A stretch of 64,000 nt of DNA, taken from assembly GCA_022813865.1 (NCBI GenBank), contig JALDZX010000009.1, forward strand, positions 248,001-312,000. Direction: 5' to 3'. This document shows positions 16,781-59,388 of the stretch, in pieces (the first letter of the stretch is position 1; every line of letters begins with the position of its first letter). Made by a program: the position numbers and the translations under genes. The notes under the pieces were generated by a model. It saw nothing but the letters and a program-made list of their open reading frames with translations, did not search any database and had not been told where the DNA came from. Source of the DNA: Xylographa opegraphella. Its lineage: Eukaryota.

Positions 16781-17527
16781 ATGCAGTACTCCAAGATCGC
16801 TTTCCTCGCCGCCTTGGCTGCTCCCCTCGTAGCTGCCCAGGACCTGTCCGGCCTGCCGTCGTGCGCTGTACGTTGCTGCATTTGATCCACCCATTCGTTA
16901 TGCGACTTCTGACTTTGATCCCTCCAGTTGACGCCTGCCATCAGTGCTCTCAGCTCCACCGGCTGCGCTCTGACCGACGTGGCGTGCATTTGCGCCGACA
17001 CTTCCTTCCTGCATTCCCTGCAGACCACCGTGGAGGCAGTCTGCAGTCCGGCTGACCTGACGAGTAAGATTGCTCCTCGCTCAATCGTGGCCGTGCGGCA
17101 GATTCATTGACACCTTCGTGCAGAGGCCCTCCAGTTCGCGCAAACTCTCTGCCTCAGCGCCGGTGTTACGTTGACCGTCGCGACGCCCTCTGCGCTCGCA
17201 CCAGCCACGACCCCGGCTGCAGCGTCGACCACTCCCATGATGACCACCACCGCCATGGCATCGACCACCATGACCACCACCATGCCCATGTACTCCTCCT
17301 TGACCAGCGCCATGATGTCCAGCAGCGCCATGATGTCCAGCGCCACCCCATCATCCGCCGTCATCGTGTCCGTCATCTCCGATGGCCAGCCTCAGGTTCC
17401 CACCAACGCCACCACCCTCGCCTCCGCCACCATCACCCCCTTCCAGGGCGCCGCCGCCACCAACAAGGCTCAATTCGCCGGCGCCGCCATGCTGATGGGT
17501 GCCGTGGGTGCCGTGTTCGCTTTGTAA
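16781..17527 (+). CDS. Secreted CFEM-domain, Ser/Thr/Met-rich, probably GPI-anchored cell-wall protein with one PIR repeat (3 exons)
   Basis: Exons 16781-16867, 16928-17063, 17124-17527 give a signal peptide MQYSKIAFLAALAAPLVAA, CFEM LPSCA..GCALTDVACIC..VCSPAD..LC, PIR-type VISDGQPQ and a hydrophobic GPI-type tail. Confidence 0.9.
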
Positions 17528-17873
17528 AGGGGAGCTGCTCACAGCAATTGCATGGCGATTTGTTTTCTAGATCATTGAAATTACGTGAGCATGTGTGTGA
17601 CCGGAGAACCATCGTGGATGGTCGGTGGGGAGGGAAGGCGGGGTGGGGGGATTCTTTGCCCGGTGTATCATAATCAGAAAACTCGCGTTTGGCTAGGATG
17701 CGTCGGTAATGAGACGGATGGTGCATTCTACATAAAGTTTTCCTCGAAAAGAGAAAAAAATAATACACTTTGGCTATACTACCCCTTTCCACCCCCCCGC
17801 CCCCTCTCCCCCTCTTTAATCAATACATGCACGGTGAACGATGATGATAATAATGCTGCTGCTGCTCCTCAAT

Positions 17874-18388
17874 TCAATGCGGCAACCGCATCGCCCGCTC
17901 GCCCCACACGTGCCCGCACCCGCCCTCCGCCATGACGCACACGTACATCTGCGTCTTCTGGCCGCCGCCCGTCGTCGTCGACAGGAAGACGTGGCCCGCC
18001 CGATGGCAGCCCGGGCACGTCACGCTCGGCTGCCGCACTTTGTTGTTCGTCACTCGCTTGCGGAGCGGCGAGTGGAGAGTGTCTCTGGAGGCAATGGGTT
18101 TGTTAGCTGGGAGGGATCTTGGGGAGACGGATATCGGAGGCGGGCTTACGGCTCGTGCAGATGTTGCGCGTTTGGTACGAGGGCTGCGGTATCGCGTGCG
18201 TAGAGCTTGTTGGGGAAGCTATCGTCGAAGATGGCGGCTTCGCGCGCGTATAGATGCTGCTGCTGGTGGTTCTCGGCTATGGGGTGGGCTTCTCGGGCGT
18301 GGAGGTGGGGCTGTCCGGAGGTGCTGCCGGGGTGGCAGAGGGCGAAGGGGGCGGTTAGGGCGAGGAGGAGGGTGCGGGGGAGGTGCAT
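17874..18388 (-). CDS. Small secreted prepro-protein (149 aa): LxAR pro-repeats, LRKR site, C-terminal C4 zinc-ribbon-like domain
   Basis: Exons 18388-18150 and 18084-17874; intron GTAAGC...GCTAAC...CAG. Signal peptide MHLPRTLLLALTAPFALC. TATA-like TATATAAAA about 100 bp upstream. Confidence 0.8.
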
Positions 18389-18504
18389 GGTGCTGGACTG
18401 TGGAGGATTAGTGGATGGTTGGGAAGGGGAGATGTCTGCTGCTGTTGTTGTTGTTGTTGTGTGGAGGATATTGGGGGGNGGTGATGGGGCTTTTATATAG
18501 TGAG

Positions 18505-18775
18505 GAGTGGGACATGGTTGCTGTGTATCCTTCTGCATATGCGTGGATGGATATGGGATGCTGAAGACGAGAAATGGTACAGCCCCGAGGGAGTTGCTGA
18601 CCCGGTCGTACGGGTCGTGGTCGTGCTGGAGCTGCTTGGGGAGTTGGGACATGGTTGCTGTGGTTTCTTCTGTACACGTTGATGGGTATTACACCCTGAG
18701 GGCGATTACGGTACAGCCCCGAGGGTTTGCTGACCCGGTCCTTCGTGTCAAGGTCGTGCGGGAACTGGTCGAGCA
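18505..18775. repeat. Imperfect tandem duplication, unit about 135 bp
   Basis: GGGACATGGTTGCTGTG at 18509 and 18646; GGTACAGCCCCGAGGG..TTGCTGACCCGGTC at 18576 and 18710. Confidence 0.8.
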
Positions 18776-19976
18776 GAGGAATATGTGACCGGGCCCGAGT
18801 CGTTGGGTTTCCACCCAGCGGACGAGCATGTGGGGAATGACCCGGCCGTGAGGAAGGGCTGCTTGACGGGGGCGGAACGATGGAGTCTCCGCTGATGGCA
18901 TGGTGCTGTGGTCGGGGTTTTGGAAGAGCTGGTCGTTGGGGACGGGGGCTTGAGGGGCTGACCAACTGGTGTTTGATTGATGATCGTGGTATAGCCTTGA
19001 GTGGCGGTGCTTTGGGTGAGAAAGAGTTGTTTGCCTTATGTGAGGGGACTCATAAAGGGCATGCCGAACATGGGGTGATGCTTTAGAGTTCTTCACGGGC
19101 GTGAGAGCCCCTGGACCTTGCCTAAATCCTGGGGGCAGCTTTTTGAGTGCCGCTATTTCGTGGTCTTCCCCGGGAACGCTTCAGTGGGAAGCCCCCTGAA
19201 CTCCTGACTCCTTGCCAAGAGCTTCTTGGGAATGCTTGTTTATCTTTGGGTTCCTTTGGCAGAATCTAGTCCCAACACGGACAAGATGACAGATTCGGAG
19301 CGGAACAATCTCGGCGCTAACAGTTCTTGACTCTTGAGACTCCTCCACCAGAGCAACTACGCTGCACTCAGAAAATATCTCAAAGTACCCATCCGTACCC
19401 AGGCGGCCGAGTAGTGTAGAGCCCAGCCAATCATCTTACCATAAAACAGCCACGGCTCACCTGCGAGTCTGGATGTGGAAGAGGGGAACGTGTTCCGTGA
19501 TGATGTCGAGAGAAGGTGGGCTGATCAAGGGCGATCTTTCTGCTCTTTGGTCCTTCGGGTGCTGCGGATGTGCTTCTTTGAGAACGGCACCACCGTCACT
19601 GACAGGATGATTGAATCTGCGACCATCAGTTCGATCTCGTTATTAGCGCTCGCGTCGCTCACGACCACTGCCTTCGTCTAGCCGCTTTACAAGTGTACAG
19701 TACACACATGTAACACGCTCCCGAAAATGAACTCATTGGGTAAATCCACAAGAAGGGTTCTGCTGTGCTTAGATTTAGAAAGAACGCCATTGACCGGAGG
19801 GCTCTGATGCCGGCGACGCTACCTTCCGTAGCAGGATTGATTCCATGGTGACGAGGATGAAGCATTTACTTCCAGCATGTGCTTTCACTCATGCTTGATT
19901 CCCTTGCTTGATGATGTTTGTTTTGATATCCTGCTTTTCGTTGACTGTTTCCATGACCTCTTGAGCGGTCGTTACC

Positions 19977-22077
19977 ATGACTCGAATCACGCCTCGAACT
20001 TGTCTCTACCCTCTCACTGGTAGTCTCCTTCTCACCTTCACTCTCTCCATCGCACTCACCTTCCGTTCTGACCACTACTGTTATGCTGGCACCTGTGGCG
20101 AATGGCTCTTCCCCCTCCAGGCACGACTACACGTTGTGGTATGGTACTTCTGGGTCTCCATCTCTGTCGCTTTCCTCGCCGTGCGCGCTTTTCACCCGCA
20201 GCTGCGGCGCTTCCTTGTACGGCCTGTGCTGGATCGCAAACTTCTACTACTGGGCAAACGTCTGACGATTAGCGGGCTATTGGCTTTCATATCGGTTGTC
20301 TCACTCTACGGTATTGTTGTCGGTATCTGGTGGATCAGGTTGAGAGACTACTTTGAGGCACGCGGTAGCGCCGCTGGTGTTTATGAGGGGAACAAGCGTC
20401 TCGCAGCCATTGCCCTGACCGGTCATTTTTGCGACATCACTATGGGAATGGTCTTGATTCCGATTTCTAGACATAGCGCACTGGCCTCATTTTTCAAGCT
20501 TTCCGTGTCCACGACGCTTGCTTTTCACATGTTGATTGCATATACACTCTTCACTCTGGTCCTTTTGCATGCATTTCTTTACGTGTCGTGGATCCCTGTA
20601 TTCGAAAGTCTTTCGCAAAATCTTCGGATGGTTTACCCGATCCTGAACCCTACATATCTATACAACGAGACCTGGCCTGGCAATACTTCTCCATTAGGGG
20701 TCTGGCGCGCTTCTCTGATATTTACCGGTCTCACGGCTACCACAATAATTTGCCTAATATTCCTCACCACGCTACCTAGAATTCGAGGAAAGCATTTTAA
20801 CTTATTCTACTTCACTCATCTTCTAAGTATCGTGGCCGTTATCGTTATATGCCTCCACGCAAGCACGATGTTCTACTGCACAGCTCCTGGACTCGTCATG
20901 TGGGTCCTCGATTGGGGCATGCGACTGTATGAATTGAGGAAGAAATTGGATGGCAAAGTCATACACTTGGGAAATGGGTGGTACAGGTACAAACCATTTA
21001 CGATTATCCGGTCCAATGCAAACTGGCTAACAAATACCAAGCTTGATCTTGGGACTTCCTCGACACCGTCTCGACGGCTGTGCGTGCAAATCCCCACTGG
21101 CTCATTTCTACATACATCATGCCGAGTCGTCAGTACGAGAGCTCCATCCATTCACGACCATCACCCATCTCGCGTCCCAGAACAGGCTTACCCCTCCAAC
21201 GGAAAACGATCTGCCGGTACAGTTTCTCTTCCGTAAACGCGGTATAGCGACCGCTTCTGGAACCACGCCTAAGAAATATGCATGGATATCAGTGCTCAAT
21301 TTCTTCAGTATGAGACTGAAGCCATCTTTTCAATGGACGGACAAGCTCGCCGGCCTGGCTGACCGCTCTTCATCCATACCAGAAGATGTCGAGAAGATCG
21401 CATTAGACCGTTCAAGCTTGACACCCCGATCTGGTCAATTGCAAACCAGCAATATCGACCAAGCCCAGCCCGTGGCAATGGTAGACATCGGCCTCCGCCT
21501 TGAAGGCCCATATTTTACCCCAGCCGATCCTTCGCGTTATAAGACAGTCATCTGTTTCGTCGCCGGTACCGGTGTCAGTGGGGCGATCGCCATAGCCGCC
21601 GCATTCATCGATCTCAAGAGGCAGCAAGTGGCCGTCCAGAAAGAATATACTTCGTCGAATACCAAAGAAGCGTTATCCGTGCCCGCTTCATGCTCGTCAT
21701 CGAAGTCGTCCGCCTCGAGTACATGGCAACGCTGTGTTGTTTTCTGGAGCGTGCGGGCCGACGATTATGTCGAGCTACCCTTTTTCAACGGTAATTTCCT
21801 CGCTTCAACCAAGAGTTTCTTTCATGCGTTCCTTGACCAGGCTAATAGCTTCGACTTCTCAGACCCTTCCGCCTCACTCGAACTCCGCATCCACCTCACC
21901 GGCAAAGACCGGCCGCGACTTGACGTCGCCGAGGCCCTTGCGTCCATATGCAACGAGATGCCGGGAGGCTCAACTTGGTGTTACCTTTCCGGCCCCAACG
22001 CCTTCATCGCTGCAGGCGAGGCGGCGTGTAAATCCCGCCCAGGAGTGGACTTTTATGGGGCCAGGTGGGATATATAA
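19977..22077 (+). CDS. Ferric reductase-like transmembrane oxidoreductase (FRE/NOX superfamily)
   Basis: Heme His pairs (FHMLIAYTLFTLVLLHA; THLLSIVAVIVICLHA), FAD motif HPFT, NAD(P)H motifs EGPY and VAGTG; introns about 20987-21041 and 21791-21861. Confidence 0.9.
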
Positions 22078-56965: not shown

Positions 56966-57574
56966 TCATCTGCGCATGCCCATCTGACCGCGGGGTGCAC
57001 GACGCGCGTGGTCGTGGAGGGAGCGCGCGTCGTTACCGTGTGCGCGTGCATGGGCGTGAGCTGCCGCATCTCTCTTGGACGCGGTCAGGTTGGGGCAAAG
57101 AGTCATGGTCAAGTCCGAGCTCGACTCGCACACGGCAGTGGCCCAGTTGTCCTCGGGGAGCGTGTAGGCAGCGTGACAAGATCCTTGGCCGGCAGGGCAG
57201 GTGACTTCGCGGCAGGCTGACTCCGATGGGACGAGTGCAAGGCCGTCGTCGGAGAATGGGAAGCCGTTCACGTTGGAGACGTCGTACCAAAGTTGACTAC
57301 CGTCCAGGGTGTATTCGAATTGCGTGATGGTGTCCTCGTTGCCGAGAGCCGTGGAGATTTTGATGGAGATGCCACCGCCCTCGGAACGGGTCTGGTACTC
57401 TTCCTTGTATGGCTTTCCGTGCGGCTCAATGGTGACCATCTCACTGGAGCTGTCCCCGACAGACCAAAGATACACTGGGTAGGCACATTCGTTGTTGACT
57501 ATGGCCGAGCTTGCTTGAGCATTTGAGGCGAAGGCTAGCACTGCTGCCAACGCGCTGATCTTCGTGAACTGCAT
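56966..57574 (-). CDS. Secreted Bys1-family (thaumatin-like fold) protein with His-rich C-terminal tail
   Basis: Signal peptide MQFTKISALAAVLAFASNAQA; AIVNNECAYPVYLWSV, GGISIKIS, TQFEYTL..LWYDVSNVNGFPF, AYTLPED. Confidence 0.85.
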   Translation of the reverse strand: MQFTKISALAAVLAFASNAQASSAIVNNECAYPVYLWSVGDSSSEMVTIEPHGKPYKEEYQTRSEGGGISIKISTALGNEDTITQFEYTLDGSQLWYDVSNVNGFPFSDDGLALVPSESACREVTCPAGQGSCHAAYTLPEDNWATAVCESSSDLTMTLCPNLTASKRDAAAHAHARAHGNDARSLHDHARRAPRGQMGMRR

Positions 57575-59388
57575 GATGAGAACTGGAAAGGATCGTGATG
57601 GTCTTTTATATTGTAATTTGATTCGATGCGCCGGGCTTGATTCGTAGAGTATTGGTCGCGCAAATGAATATATATAAAGGGGCGAGCGAATAAAGACTTC
57701 CAGAAGTAGGAGAGGGGAATTGATCTCGTGAGAGAATGAGTAATGCTGTATGAGCAAAGGAGTGTGAGTTAGATGGCAATGGCACAATGAGTGTGGCCTG
57801 CAGTGAATGAAAGACTGATTGTGATAGAGGACAAAGGAGGAGACTGGGCGCACCATTCCTTTATCCCCTCGTCCCGTGGCAGACCAGCCTAGCGATCAAG
57901 ATTTTCCTCCGCTTCCATTCCAATTCATGATAATTGGACGAACATGACGCGAGAAGGGTTTAGCCAGGGGTGTCCGAGCCGTCTGGCGGCAGATCCCCGT
58001 TCTGACAAGGTTATAGCGTCGGTAGGTTGGAAAGCCCACTCACGAACAAGGCCCCAAAGGTTGCCTACCCCTGTCGTAGGCCCTCGCGCCCGAACCGTAC
58101 CTGATCCTTGGGCTGCGCCCAGTCGGAGGCCTGCAACGATCGATGCCGCATGCAATTCGTGGCAGACAATGGCGTCCATGTGTCGCGAGTCGCGACAACG
58201 ACAACTTCAGTGGTTCGCTAAGTGGTCAAGCCATGGAAGCGCAAAGGGAATGGACAGCGCACGAGTCTCTACTCTGCAACCAAATATTGAAGGCTCCCAA
58301 CCGAGAAAGTCTTTCACTTTTTGGACGGTTCACACATGGTTGGCATATCGAAAAGGCATGCGCTGCCGCGGTTCCTGTAATAAGTGGGCCGGGCCCACAT
58401 GCTCCGTCGACTCCGCTGACGTTAAGATTTGCTATTTCGTCAAGTCATAACGGTTCAACGGCGCGAGCCGGCTCCTGTTGGGAGTTGATCTCCCGCTGAT
58501 GTTCTCCGATCCCACCCTTCCTACCGGCGTCGAGCTTTTCAGTCGGTAAAGCCTTTCGGAGGATTTGCTGATGGGCGATGGCCCGGGGAGAGTGCCGTAA
58601 TAGGGTTGCTACCACTGGCTATTATCAGACCAATCATATTTATCTCTCATACTAAAACAGATCCACTTGACACTTCACATGAAATGTACGCAGTGGGAAG
58701 CACATCATGTGAAGTCGCACAAAACAGCGGCAATTTGAAGGCCTGTCAATAGCACCGTGGAGATCCATACCTTACAAATAGGAAAACTTCAAACAATCGG
58801 CCAACGTTTCCACAATCTTTCATGACAAAGTGACGCAAAGCGAGTTGATGGCATGCACATTCATCAGAAAATACGGAATAGAGGGCGCCTGAGCCAACGA
58901 GCTGACAACGCATATTGGCGACGCACCTTTATCTTCAATCGTGGCCAATGATTCCATAAACATAACTCATTGGACAAGAGACACCAAGGGATTTTCCACT
59001 CGCAGTAGGACAGTCATATGCTCGCGCACAAGGATGGCGGTCAGGAAAGATGTTCCAATTGTGCTTCCACCCACCAAAAGGCTGTGCAAAAGCGTGAAAG
59101 GCCTTTGTATGAATTTTCTAAGTAGGTCGTGCTGAGAACTACCGAGCAAGCTGAGATGTGCTGGAAACCACAGCATGCATGTTCAAAGCTACGCTTCTAC
59201 GCGAATTGTTCGTCCCGAAAGACTAAATTTTGACCTCATTTGCGTCATTTGTGTAACTTGAATCCACAAGACCTGTTGTTTGGATATTTTGACGCCGATG
59301 AAACACAGCATTCAGCAGCGCTGAGCTGTCCCGACATCTGCCTATTCGTCTTCTGTCTCTTCCTTTCTAAGCACATCACTCTCAAGCC

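Follow-up and report, generated by a model that had tools for sequence, protein, structure and literature searches.

The window analyzed here is a stretch of 64,000 nucleotides (nt) from the lichen fungus Xylographa opegraphella (assembly GCA_022813865.1, contig JALDZX010000009.1, positions 248,001 to 312,000 of the forward strand), and all coordinates count from its first letter. Its minus strand carries, at 18388–17874, a gene with an ATG at 18388, two exons, and a spliced product of 149 amino acids, in which a predicted signal peptide and a pro-region precede a small domain with four cysteines (Cys4). A preliminary description, made from the letters of the stretch alone, had read the underlying sequence features on this strand, and they are found at the same positions in the window. 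Exon 1 (18388–18150, 239 nt) comprises, from the ATG, 79 codons and two bases; it translates as MHLPRTLLLALTAPFALCHPGSTSGQPHLHAREAHPIAENHQQQHLYAREAAIFDDSFPNKLYARDTAALVPNAQHLHE, followed by two bases of a Pro codon. The intron (18085–18149, minus strand) has a length of 65 nt and phase 2, with a GTAAGC donor, a GCTAAC branch site, and a CAG acceptor. Exon 2 (18084–17874) translates as (P)DTLHSPLRKRVTNNKVRQPSVTCPGCHRAGHVFLSTTTGGGQKTQMYVCVMAEGGCGHVWGERAMRLPH* in a frame of 70 codons up to the stop codon TGA, read from the sequence at 17874–17876. Without splicing, the frame ends immediately, at a TAA within the GTAAGC donor; the canonical intron restores it, as had been proposed. The spliced product is identical, letter for letter, to MCJ1282594.1 (P0003; "hypothetical protein MMC26_001919", Xylographa opegraphella), whose cluster has one member; hence, an independent annotation picked the same splice model.

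Codon composition is consistent with this structure. At the three codon positions, the guanine–cytosine (GC) content of exon 1 is 0.75/0.43/0.80 and that of exon 2 is 0.61/0.54/0.91, while it is flat in the intron (0.52/0.67/0.57), in the 3′ flank (0.47/0.41/0.44), and in the in-frame upstream extension 18389–18652 (0.55/0.51/0.57), which supports both exons and the start at 18388. Exon 1 has the best codon log-likelihood among its six frames in its sense frame; for exon 2, sense and antisense are not separated by the codon score alone. Upstream, the stop-to-stop frame of the gene extends to 18688 and includes an ATG at 18652. A start at this upstream ATG was rejected, since the stretch lacks codon periodicity and holds a TATA box (TATATAAAAG, read directly at 18490–18499 of the minus strand, about 100 nt 5′ of the ATG). 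The region from the TATA box to the ATG likewise shows no codon periodicity, and the presumed 5′ leader contains CAA/CAG trinucleotide microsatellite runs at 18440–18470. Because the upstream stretch is aperiodic and contains both the TATA box and the microsatellite, we place the start at 18388; this ATG has A at position –3.

The order of elements in the precursor given by the preliminary description, i.e., a signal peptide, LxAR repeats, LRKR, and a 59-residue Cys4 domain, is present in full. The predicted signal peptide (residues 1–18, MHLPRTLLLALTAPFALC; 18335–18388 of the minus strand, including the start codon) was delimited from the hydropathy profile; a single Arg is followed by TLLLALTAPFAL. 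In windows of nine residues, hydropathy peaks at 2.14 for residues 7–15 and then falls below 0, and cleavage is predicted after Cys18 by our own reading of the –3/–1 rule. The pro-region (residues 19–90) has 72 amino acids, nine of them His and none of them Cys, and an isoelectric point (pI) of 6.8. Its exon-1 part (residues 19–80; 18150–18334, minus strand) is rich in His, Ala, and Pro, and contains the LxAR motifs at 18293–18304, 18242–18253, and 18194–18205 (minus strand). These belong to three degenerate units (at residues 28, 45, and 61) that share xL(H/Y)AR(E/D)(A/T), are 16–25 amino acids long, and are poorly conserved outside the motif. The exon-2 end of the pro-region (18054–18084, minus strand) carries the Kex2-type site PLRKR (LRKR at 18054–18065). 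AlphaFold models the pro-region without secondary structure, with a predicted local distance difference test score (pLDDT) of about 30.

Four L..R patterns are present, at residues 29, 46, 62, and 87. The KR at residues 89–90, the only dibasic site of the protein, has Leu at P4 and marks the exact boundary between the unstructured part without Cys and the beta part that contains them. According to PMC8528282, Kex2 prefers Arg at P1, Lys or Arg at P2, and Leu at P4, and LRKR matches this preference in full. The same source defines a class of effectors with a Kex2-processed pro-domain (K2PP) and the corresponding LxxR/KR rules. The layout of this class (a signal peptide, a disordered pro-domain ending in KR/RR or LxxR, and a folded part) is reproduced here by the hydropathy profile, the motifs, and the disorder predicted by AlphaFold; the predicted site, at residue 90 of 149, lies beyond the first half of the protein, to which the published K2PP search rule applies (PMC8528282).

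As far as protein databases show, the gene is an orphan. A HMMER search with the exon-2 peptide against 1.84 billion representatives yields five proteins at an expectation value (E) ≤ 0.001, namely, the protein itself and four repeat artefacts. Two of the latter (P0004 and P0007) were rejected as low-complexity repeat translations; P0006, a bacterial cadherin-like adhesin of 4889 amino acids, was rejected as a homologue because its repeats align without any Cys, and P0005 from Hymenopellis radicata because it has only three Cys positions in common with the orphan domain. Word-indexed searches of 5.8 billion clusters with the whole protein, residues 91–149, and the exon-1 translation return only the protein itself (residues 91–149 gave four candidates, and residues 1–80 of the exon-1 open reading frame gave 304 against longer proteins). 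The protein is a singleton among about 15 billion, and tblastn finds no paralogue in the 64-kb window, the next best match having E 1.5. P0005, a basidiomycete protein of 358 amino acids, looks secreted in its own right; with its five tandem units of 65 amino acids, four Cys in each, and SRRE...EAR linkers, it resembles a Kex2-processed repeat protein whose units would be unusually large and contain Cys. A cluster member, P0008 (Mucidula mucida, 366 amino acids), is a second basidiomycete protein that is putatively secreted.

The predicted mature domain (residues 91–149; 17877–18053, minus strand) has 59 amino acids, a mass of 6.3 kDa, a pI of 9.25, and four Cys in the pattern CPGC-x22-C-x6-CGHVW. 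The core of the domain, CPGC...C-x6-CGHVW, lies at 17904–18017 of the minus strand, and nine more residues follow its W-x-E. AlphaFold predicts three strands both in the 69-residue exon-2 peptide (30–38, 41–52, and 55–62; run without an alignment) and in the 149-residue protein (110–117, 123–133, and 136–138).

This domain had been likened to the ribbons of TFIIS, RPB9, and RPC11. The likeness is recovered by unbiased scans and exceeds that of Cys-fixed shuffles in two of three tests; it did not reach family cut-offs, involves an atypical spacing, failed the third shuffle test, and is about equalled by a match to a Cip1-like family. The sole match of the exon-2 peptide in an NCBIfam scan is TIGR01384 (TFS_arch; E 7.2e-4, 20.2 bits), and the alignment falls on the C-terminal ribbon (profile positions 59–99 of 101). 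A Pfam scan of the 59-residue domain gives two matches, Cip1-like PF21340 (E 0.02) and then Zn_ribbon_TFIIS PF01096 (E 0.28), the latter spanning profile positions 2–38 of 39; with the 69-residue exon-2 peptide or the 149-residue protein as the Pfam query, PF01096 is not reported. Among PDB sequences, seven of the nine matches at E ≤ 10 are C-terminal ribbons of RPB9 or RPC10 (best RPB9, E 0.07), the other two being Cip1 (E 0.14) and a nanobody. With the low-confidence AlphaFold model as the query, Foldseek ranks human RPC10 first (chain 7d58_I; E 0.25, template-modelling score 0.37).

We also compared the domain with a set of ribbons from 86 prokaryotic-genome loci fetched by the conserved hairpin motif, which gave 79 ribbons, 74 of them distinct. 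The best Smith–Waterman score against the 74 distinct TFS/TFIIS ribbons is 65, which none of 20,000 Cys-fixed shuffles reaches (mean 33.3, standard deviation 5.0, maximum 63). With hhalign, the alignment of the 79 ribbons matches the domain with a probability of 62.9% and a score of 23.6, all four Cys being aligned; again, no shuffle out of 400 reaches this score (mean 11.7, standard deviation 2.9). The preliminary description was also right about the lack of the acidic hairpin, the sequence at the aligned position being STTTGGGQKT. RPB9 ribbons are likewise not known to have the acidic pair. The absence of an acidic tip therefore excludes a TFIIS-like catalytic function and does not exclude the fold. 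From these sequence comparisons we conclude that the likeness is probably specific and exceeds chance in its local motifs (CPxC, aromatic-x-C, and CGHxW-x-E). Membership in the TFIIS-type family is not established, the likeness being sub-threshold.

Exon 2 as the last exon of a housekeeping RPB9/RPC10 gene was rejected, since the HMMER search gives no conserved match and no N-terminal ribbon lies upstream. As a side observation, 17 contigs (L010, L013, L017, L020, L026, L030, L040, L045, L051, L055, L058, L059, L066, L067, L070, L075, and L077) carry a stop-to-stop frame of 166–167 codons that ends in a TFIIS-type ribbon, with the motif at position 140 in all of them. They are labelled as bacterial or unclassified metagenome-assembled genomes, with one Methanobacteriota, and look like DNA of eukaryotes or giant viruses that ended up in those genomes during binning. 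RPC11-like ribbon fragments are seen on L006 and L018.

What the sequence shows directly is how the gene is built, in which order its features follow each other, and that the similarity to ribbons is borderline. Interpreting these observations, we give a probability of about one half to the reading that this is a lineage-restricted two-exon gene of Xylographa opegraphella for a Kex2-processed small secreted prepro-protein with a zinc-ribbon-like Cys4 mini-domain. The N-terminal signal peptide would direct the protein into the endoplasmic reticulum (ER); the disordered His-rich pro-region (19–90) would be removed in the late Golgi at LRKR|V, with possible extra trimming at the weaker LxAR sites; and a basic, all-beta mini-domain of 59 residues would be set free outside the cell. 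The mini-domain would be a three-stranded ribbon, with CPGC and C-x6-CGHVW as the two cysteine knuckles that hold it. Its sequence follows what appears to be a zinc-ribbon grammar, with the C-terminal ribbons of TFS, TFIIS, RPB9, and RPC10 as the putative nearest relatives, and it may be a highly diverged or exon-captured ribbon that left its nuclear setting and no longer has the acidic hairpin. A single metal ion (Zn or Fe) might be held by the four Cys, which might otherwise form two cross-knuckle disulfides after oxidation in the ER. The role of the domain would be that of a small, stable module for binding rather than that of an enzyme.

Several results weigh against this reading. A Cys4 zinc site is unusual for a secreted protein. 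TFIIS-type ribbons have the spacing C-x2-C, about 24 residues, and C-x2..5-C; here, the distance between the knuckles is 22 residues, compared with 24 in 72 of the 79 ribbons, 25 in four, and 29 in two, and the second knuckle has x6, compared with x2 in 77 and x4 in one (one of the 79 was mis-parsed in this count). All four Cys align with the ribbons once two gaps are allowed. The PF01096 match has 11.5 bits with a curated cut-off of 21, and the TIGR01384 match 20.2 bits with a cut-off of 64.75, although the latter is defined for whole proteins. Our own hidden Markov model (HMM) of the 79 ribbons gives the domain 5.2 bits, aligning the first knuckle alone, and 186 of 3000 Cys-fixed shuffles equal or exceed this score; with an effective sequence number of 1.77, this profile is narrow, and its ribbons were selected by the acidic-hairpin motif that the orphan domain lacks. 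The AlphaFold models have a low mean pLDDT, 51.4 for the 69-residue peptide and 36.4 for the 149-residue protein. Foldseek gives no match at E ≤ 0.001. The best score in a search of ESM Atlas features, 0.77, is within the stated chance range, and no homologue that could show conservation is found in the protein databases searched. Regarding the pro-region, the LxAR sites have Ala at P2, outside the five alternative P2 residues given in PMC8528282. Moreover, the core domain of Cip1, a secreted fungal protein, scores as well as the ribbons (Pfam E 0.02, PDB E 0.14), and two of the Cys align with a known disulfide of Cip1, Cys22–Cys52.

Alternatively, the ribbon likeness could be convergent or due to chance. 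The mature peptide would then be a disulfide-stapled beta-hairpin remnant that stems from, or resembles, the N-terminal strands of a secreted protein of the Cip1-like family (PF21340); C26 and C56 (numbering of the exon-2 peptide) would be bonded as in Cip1. The Cip1-like core PF21340 is the best Pfam match (E 0.02–0.029), ungapped over profile positions 12–52 of 209, and PDB entry 3zyp (E 0.14) has 13 identities in 40 positions by our own count, including CGH(V/I)(W/F). C26 and C56 align with Cys22 and Cys52, which form a disulfide bond in the Cip1 crystal structure (PMC3764139). That Cip1 itself is secreted is consistent with the signal peptide. However, the match covers only 41 of the 209 profile positions and has 14.7 bits with a cut-off of 27; the two other Cys, which make up the CPxC and CxnC knuckles, have no counterpart in the alignment; no Cip1-like remnant is seen past the stop codon, where the minus-strand frames of 17351–17819 give no such match at E ≤ 10; and the exhaustive HMMER search gives no Cip1-family protein at E ≤ 0.001. 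On balance, we consider this origin unlikely, although it is the best placed among the alternatives.

The genomic surroundings point to another possibility. Downstream of the orphan gene, and convergent with it (tail to tail), lies a CFEM-domain gene (~16781–17527, plus strand), whose product carries a signal peptide and, at the other end, a tail rich in Ser/Thr and a hydrophobic C-terminus; it is probably anchored by glycosylphosphatidylinositol. Upstream and divergent is a gene of the ferric-reductase family (~19977–22077, plus strand) with a Ferric_reduct domain and an HPFT motif; the intergenic region that it has in common with the orphan gene is about 1.6 kb long. In Candida, genes for a CFEM hemophore and for ferric-reductase-like FRP lie head to head and cooperate in heme uptake, as reported in PMC9635878. 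The orphan protein might, then, be an extracellular metal-handling factor working with the products of its neighbors, its Cys4 site and pro-region, in which 9 of 72 residues are His, binding Fe, Cu, or Zn. The position between the CFEM and ferric-reductase-family genes and the Candida parallel speak in favor of this, and suggest a metal-related role as a lead only. In contrast to Candida, the two genes here are not head to head, both being on the plus strand with the orphan gene between them. No SreA-type site ATCWGATAA (with at most one mismatch) is found in 18389–19977, and the window total of such sites is 25, with 24 expected. The case for a metal role comes from position in a single genome, and we assign it a low probability.

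Other features of the region were recorded as well. The promoter contains an imperfect tandem duplication of about 135 nt (18508–18776; copies 18508–18643 and 18645–18776; repeat families D1 and D2; spacing 133–137 nt, identity 78–89%), with a short ATG-led frame on the minus strand in each copy. At 18479, downstream of the TATA box and ahead of the start codon, a run of C contains a single N, and CAG, ATT, and ATC trinucleotide runs directly follow the stop codon (17845–17870). Elsewhere in the window, a domain of the Blastomyces yeast-phase-specific protein, Bys1, is recognized with E 1e-38 in an open reading frame at 56966–57895 (minus strand); further genes encode a trehalose synthase N-domain, Acyl_transf_3, RabGAP-TBC, a kinesin, an AMP-binding enzyme, a HAD hydrolase, an MFS transporter, and DUF6594.

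Antifungal proteins of the AFP/PAF type are made as prepro-proteins in Aspergillus and Penicillium. A comparable function, as a small basic antimicrobial prepro-protein, would suit the prepro layout and the basic, all-beta, Cys-stabilized product of 59 residues; in a variant of this explanation, the active products would be peptides of the pro-region released at LxAR, as in Kex2-processed repeat proteins (KEPs), consistent with its three degenerate repeats, each of which has an L-x-A-R. KEPs are reported to be widespread in fungi (PMC7329392). Nevertheless, the Pfam matches at E ≤ 10 include no antifungal-protein family, the domain has only four Cys, and the repeats are poorly conserved outside the motif, with Ala at P2. 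The three units share only xL(H/Y)AR(E/D)(A/T), and the sole KR is at 89–90, which leaves the protein outside the KEP class. Both versions thus seem rather improbable to us.

The gene could also lack a selected function, being either a proto-gene of recent origin or an artefact of annotation. The singleton status among about 15 billion proteins and the low AlphaFold confidence agree with this. However, GC at the third codon position rises to 0.80 and 0.91 inside the exons only, the intron signals are canonical, and the coherent succession of a signal peptide, a pro-region, a dibasic site, and a Cys domain is unlikely in random sequence, so that there is little probability left for this explanation.

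Finally, the released ribbon might enter a partner or competitor cell (e.g., the algal photobiont), occupy the polymerase site of TFIIS, RPB9, or RPC11, and modulate transcription, given the ribbon likeness, the small and basic mature product (6.3 kDa, pI 9.25), and the precedent of the fungal secreted zinc-finger proteins MoHTR1–3, which are reported to act in host nuclei; however, this would be very improbable, as the acidic hairpin is absent and the hairpin two residues shorter, the protein lacks the N-terminal domains by which the real factors are anchored, the ribbon homology itself is only putative, and the literature searched provides no precedent for a TFIIS-type zinc ribbon as a secreted effector. 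In its boldest form, in which the fungus would have captured an RPB9/RPC10/TFIIS-type C-terminal ribbon, set it after a signal peptide and a Kex2 pro-domain, and would export it against the transcription machinery of the alga or of competitors, the idea amounts to an effector type not described so far, and its likelihood is very slight.

The preferred reading, i.e., a Kex2-processed secreted precursor with a zinc-ribbon-like mini-domain, leaves the ancestry of the Cys4 domain uncertain, and the gene is best filed as an orphan Kex2-processed small secreted protein. Small secreted proteins of lichen fungi are almost wholly uncharacterized, and are obvious candidates for signaling between fungus and alga. 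If the relation to TFIIS-type ribbons is true, a housekeeping nuclear module would have been recruited to the secretory pathway, which raises the question of whether a Cys4 ribbon keeps its metal or switches to disulfides once secreted. If it is not real, the gene adds one more orphan small secreted cysteine protein, ordinary in fungal genomes.

Among known systems, the C-terminal ribbons of TFS, TFIIS, RPB9, RPC10 (RPC11), and RPA12 share with the orphan domain the CPxC first knuckle and the CGHxW-x-E after the second knuckle near the C-terminus. They also share the aromatic-x-C ahead of the second knuckle and three strands, which in the orphan domain are predicted with low confidence, and an Asgard TFS (L071) has a CGHVW identical to that of the orphan domain. 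By contrast, the orphan hairpin has no acidic tip and falls two residues short of the length seen in 72 of the 79 ribbons, and the ribbons of the real factors follow an N-terminal polymerase-binding domain, while the orphan domain follows a predicted signal peptide and a pro-region. The Cip1-like core (PF21340; 3zyp) likewise comes from a secreted fungal protein, and the ungapped match of 40 residues takes in both the disulfide pair and CGH; here, the orphan domain matches just the first fifth of a beta-sandwich of 209 residues, the remainder of which is not in the locus. The secreted C2H2 nuclear effectors MoHTR1–3 of Magnaporthe oryzae are similarly reported to have a signal peptide before a normally nuclear zinc-binding module; they belong to a different zinc-finger class, are not known to have a pro-domain, and have an experimentally shown function. 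KEPs consist of tandem conserved units with dibasic separators, whereas no dibasic site occurs between the units here. The K2PP effectors (e.g., SnTox3, ToxA, and SIX1/4/6; PMC8528282) come from plant-pathogenic fungi, whereas Xylographa opegraphella is a lichen mutualist, and the orphan protein has no sequence relation to any of them; what it shares with them is the predicted signal peptide, the disordered pro-domain, the KR site with Leu at P4, the small Cys-containing mature protein, and the extra LxxR motifs.

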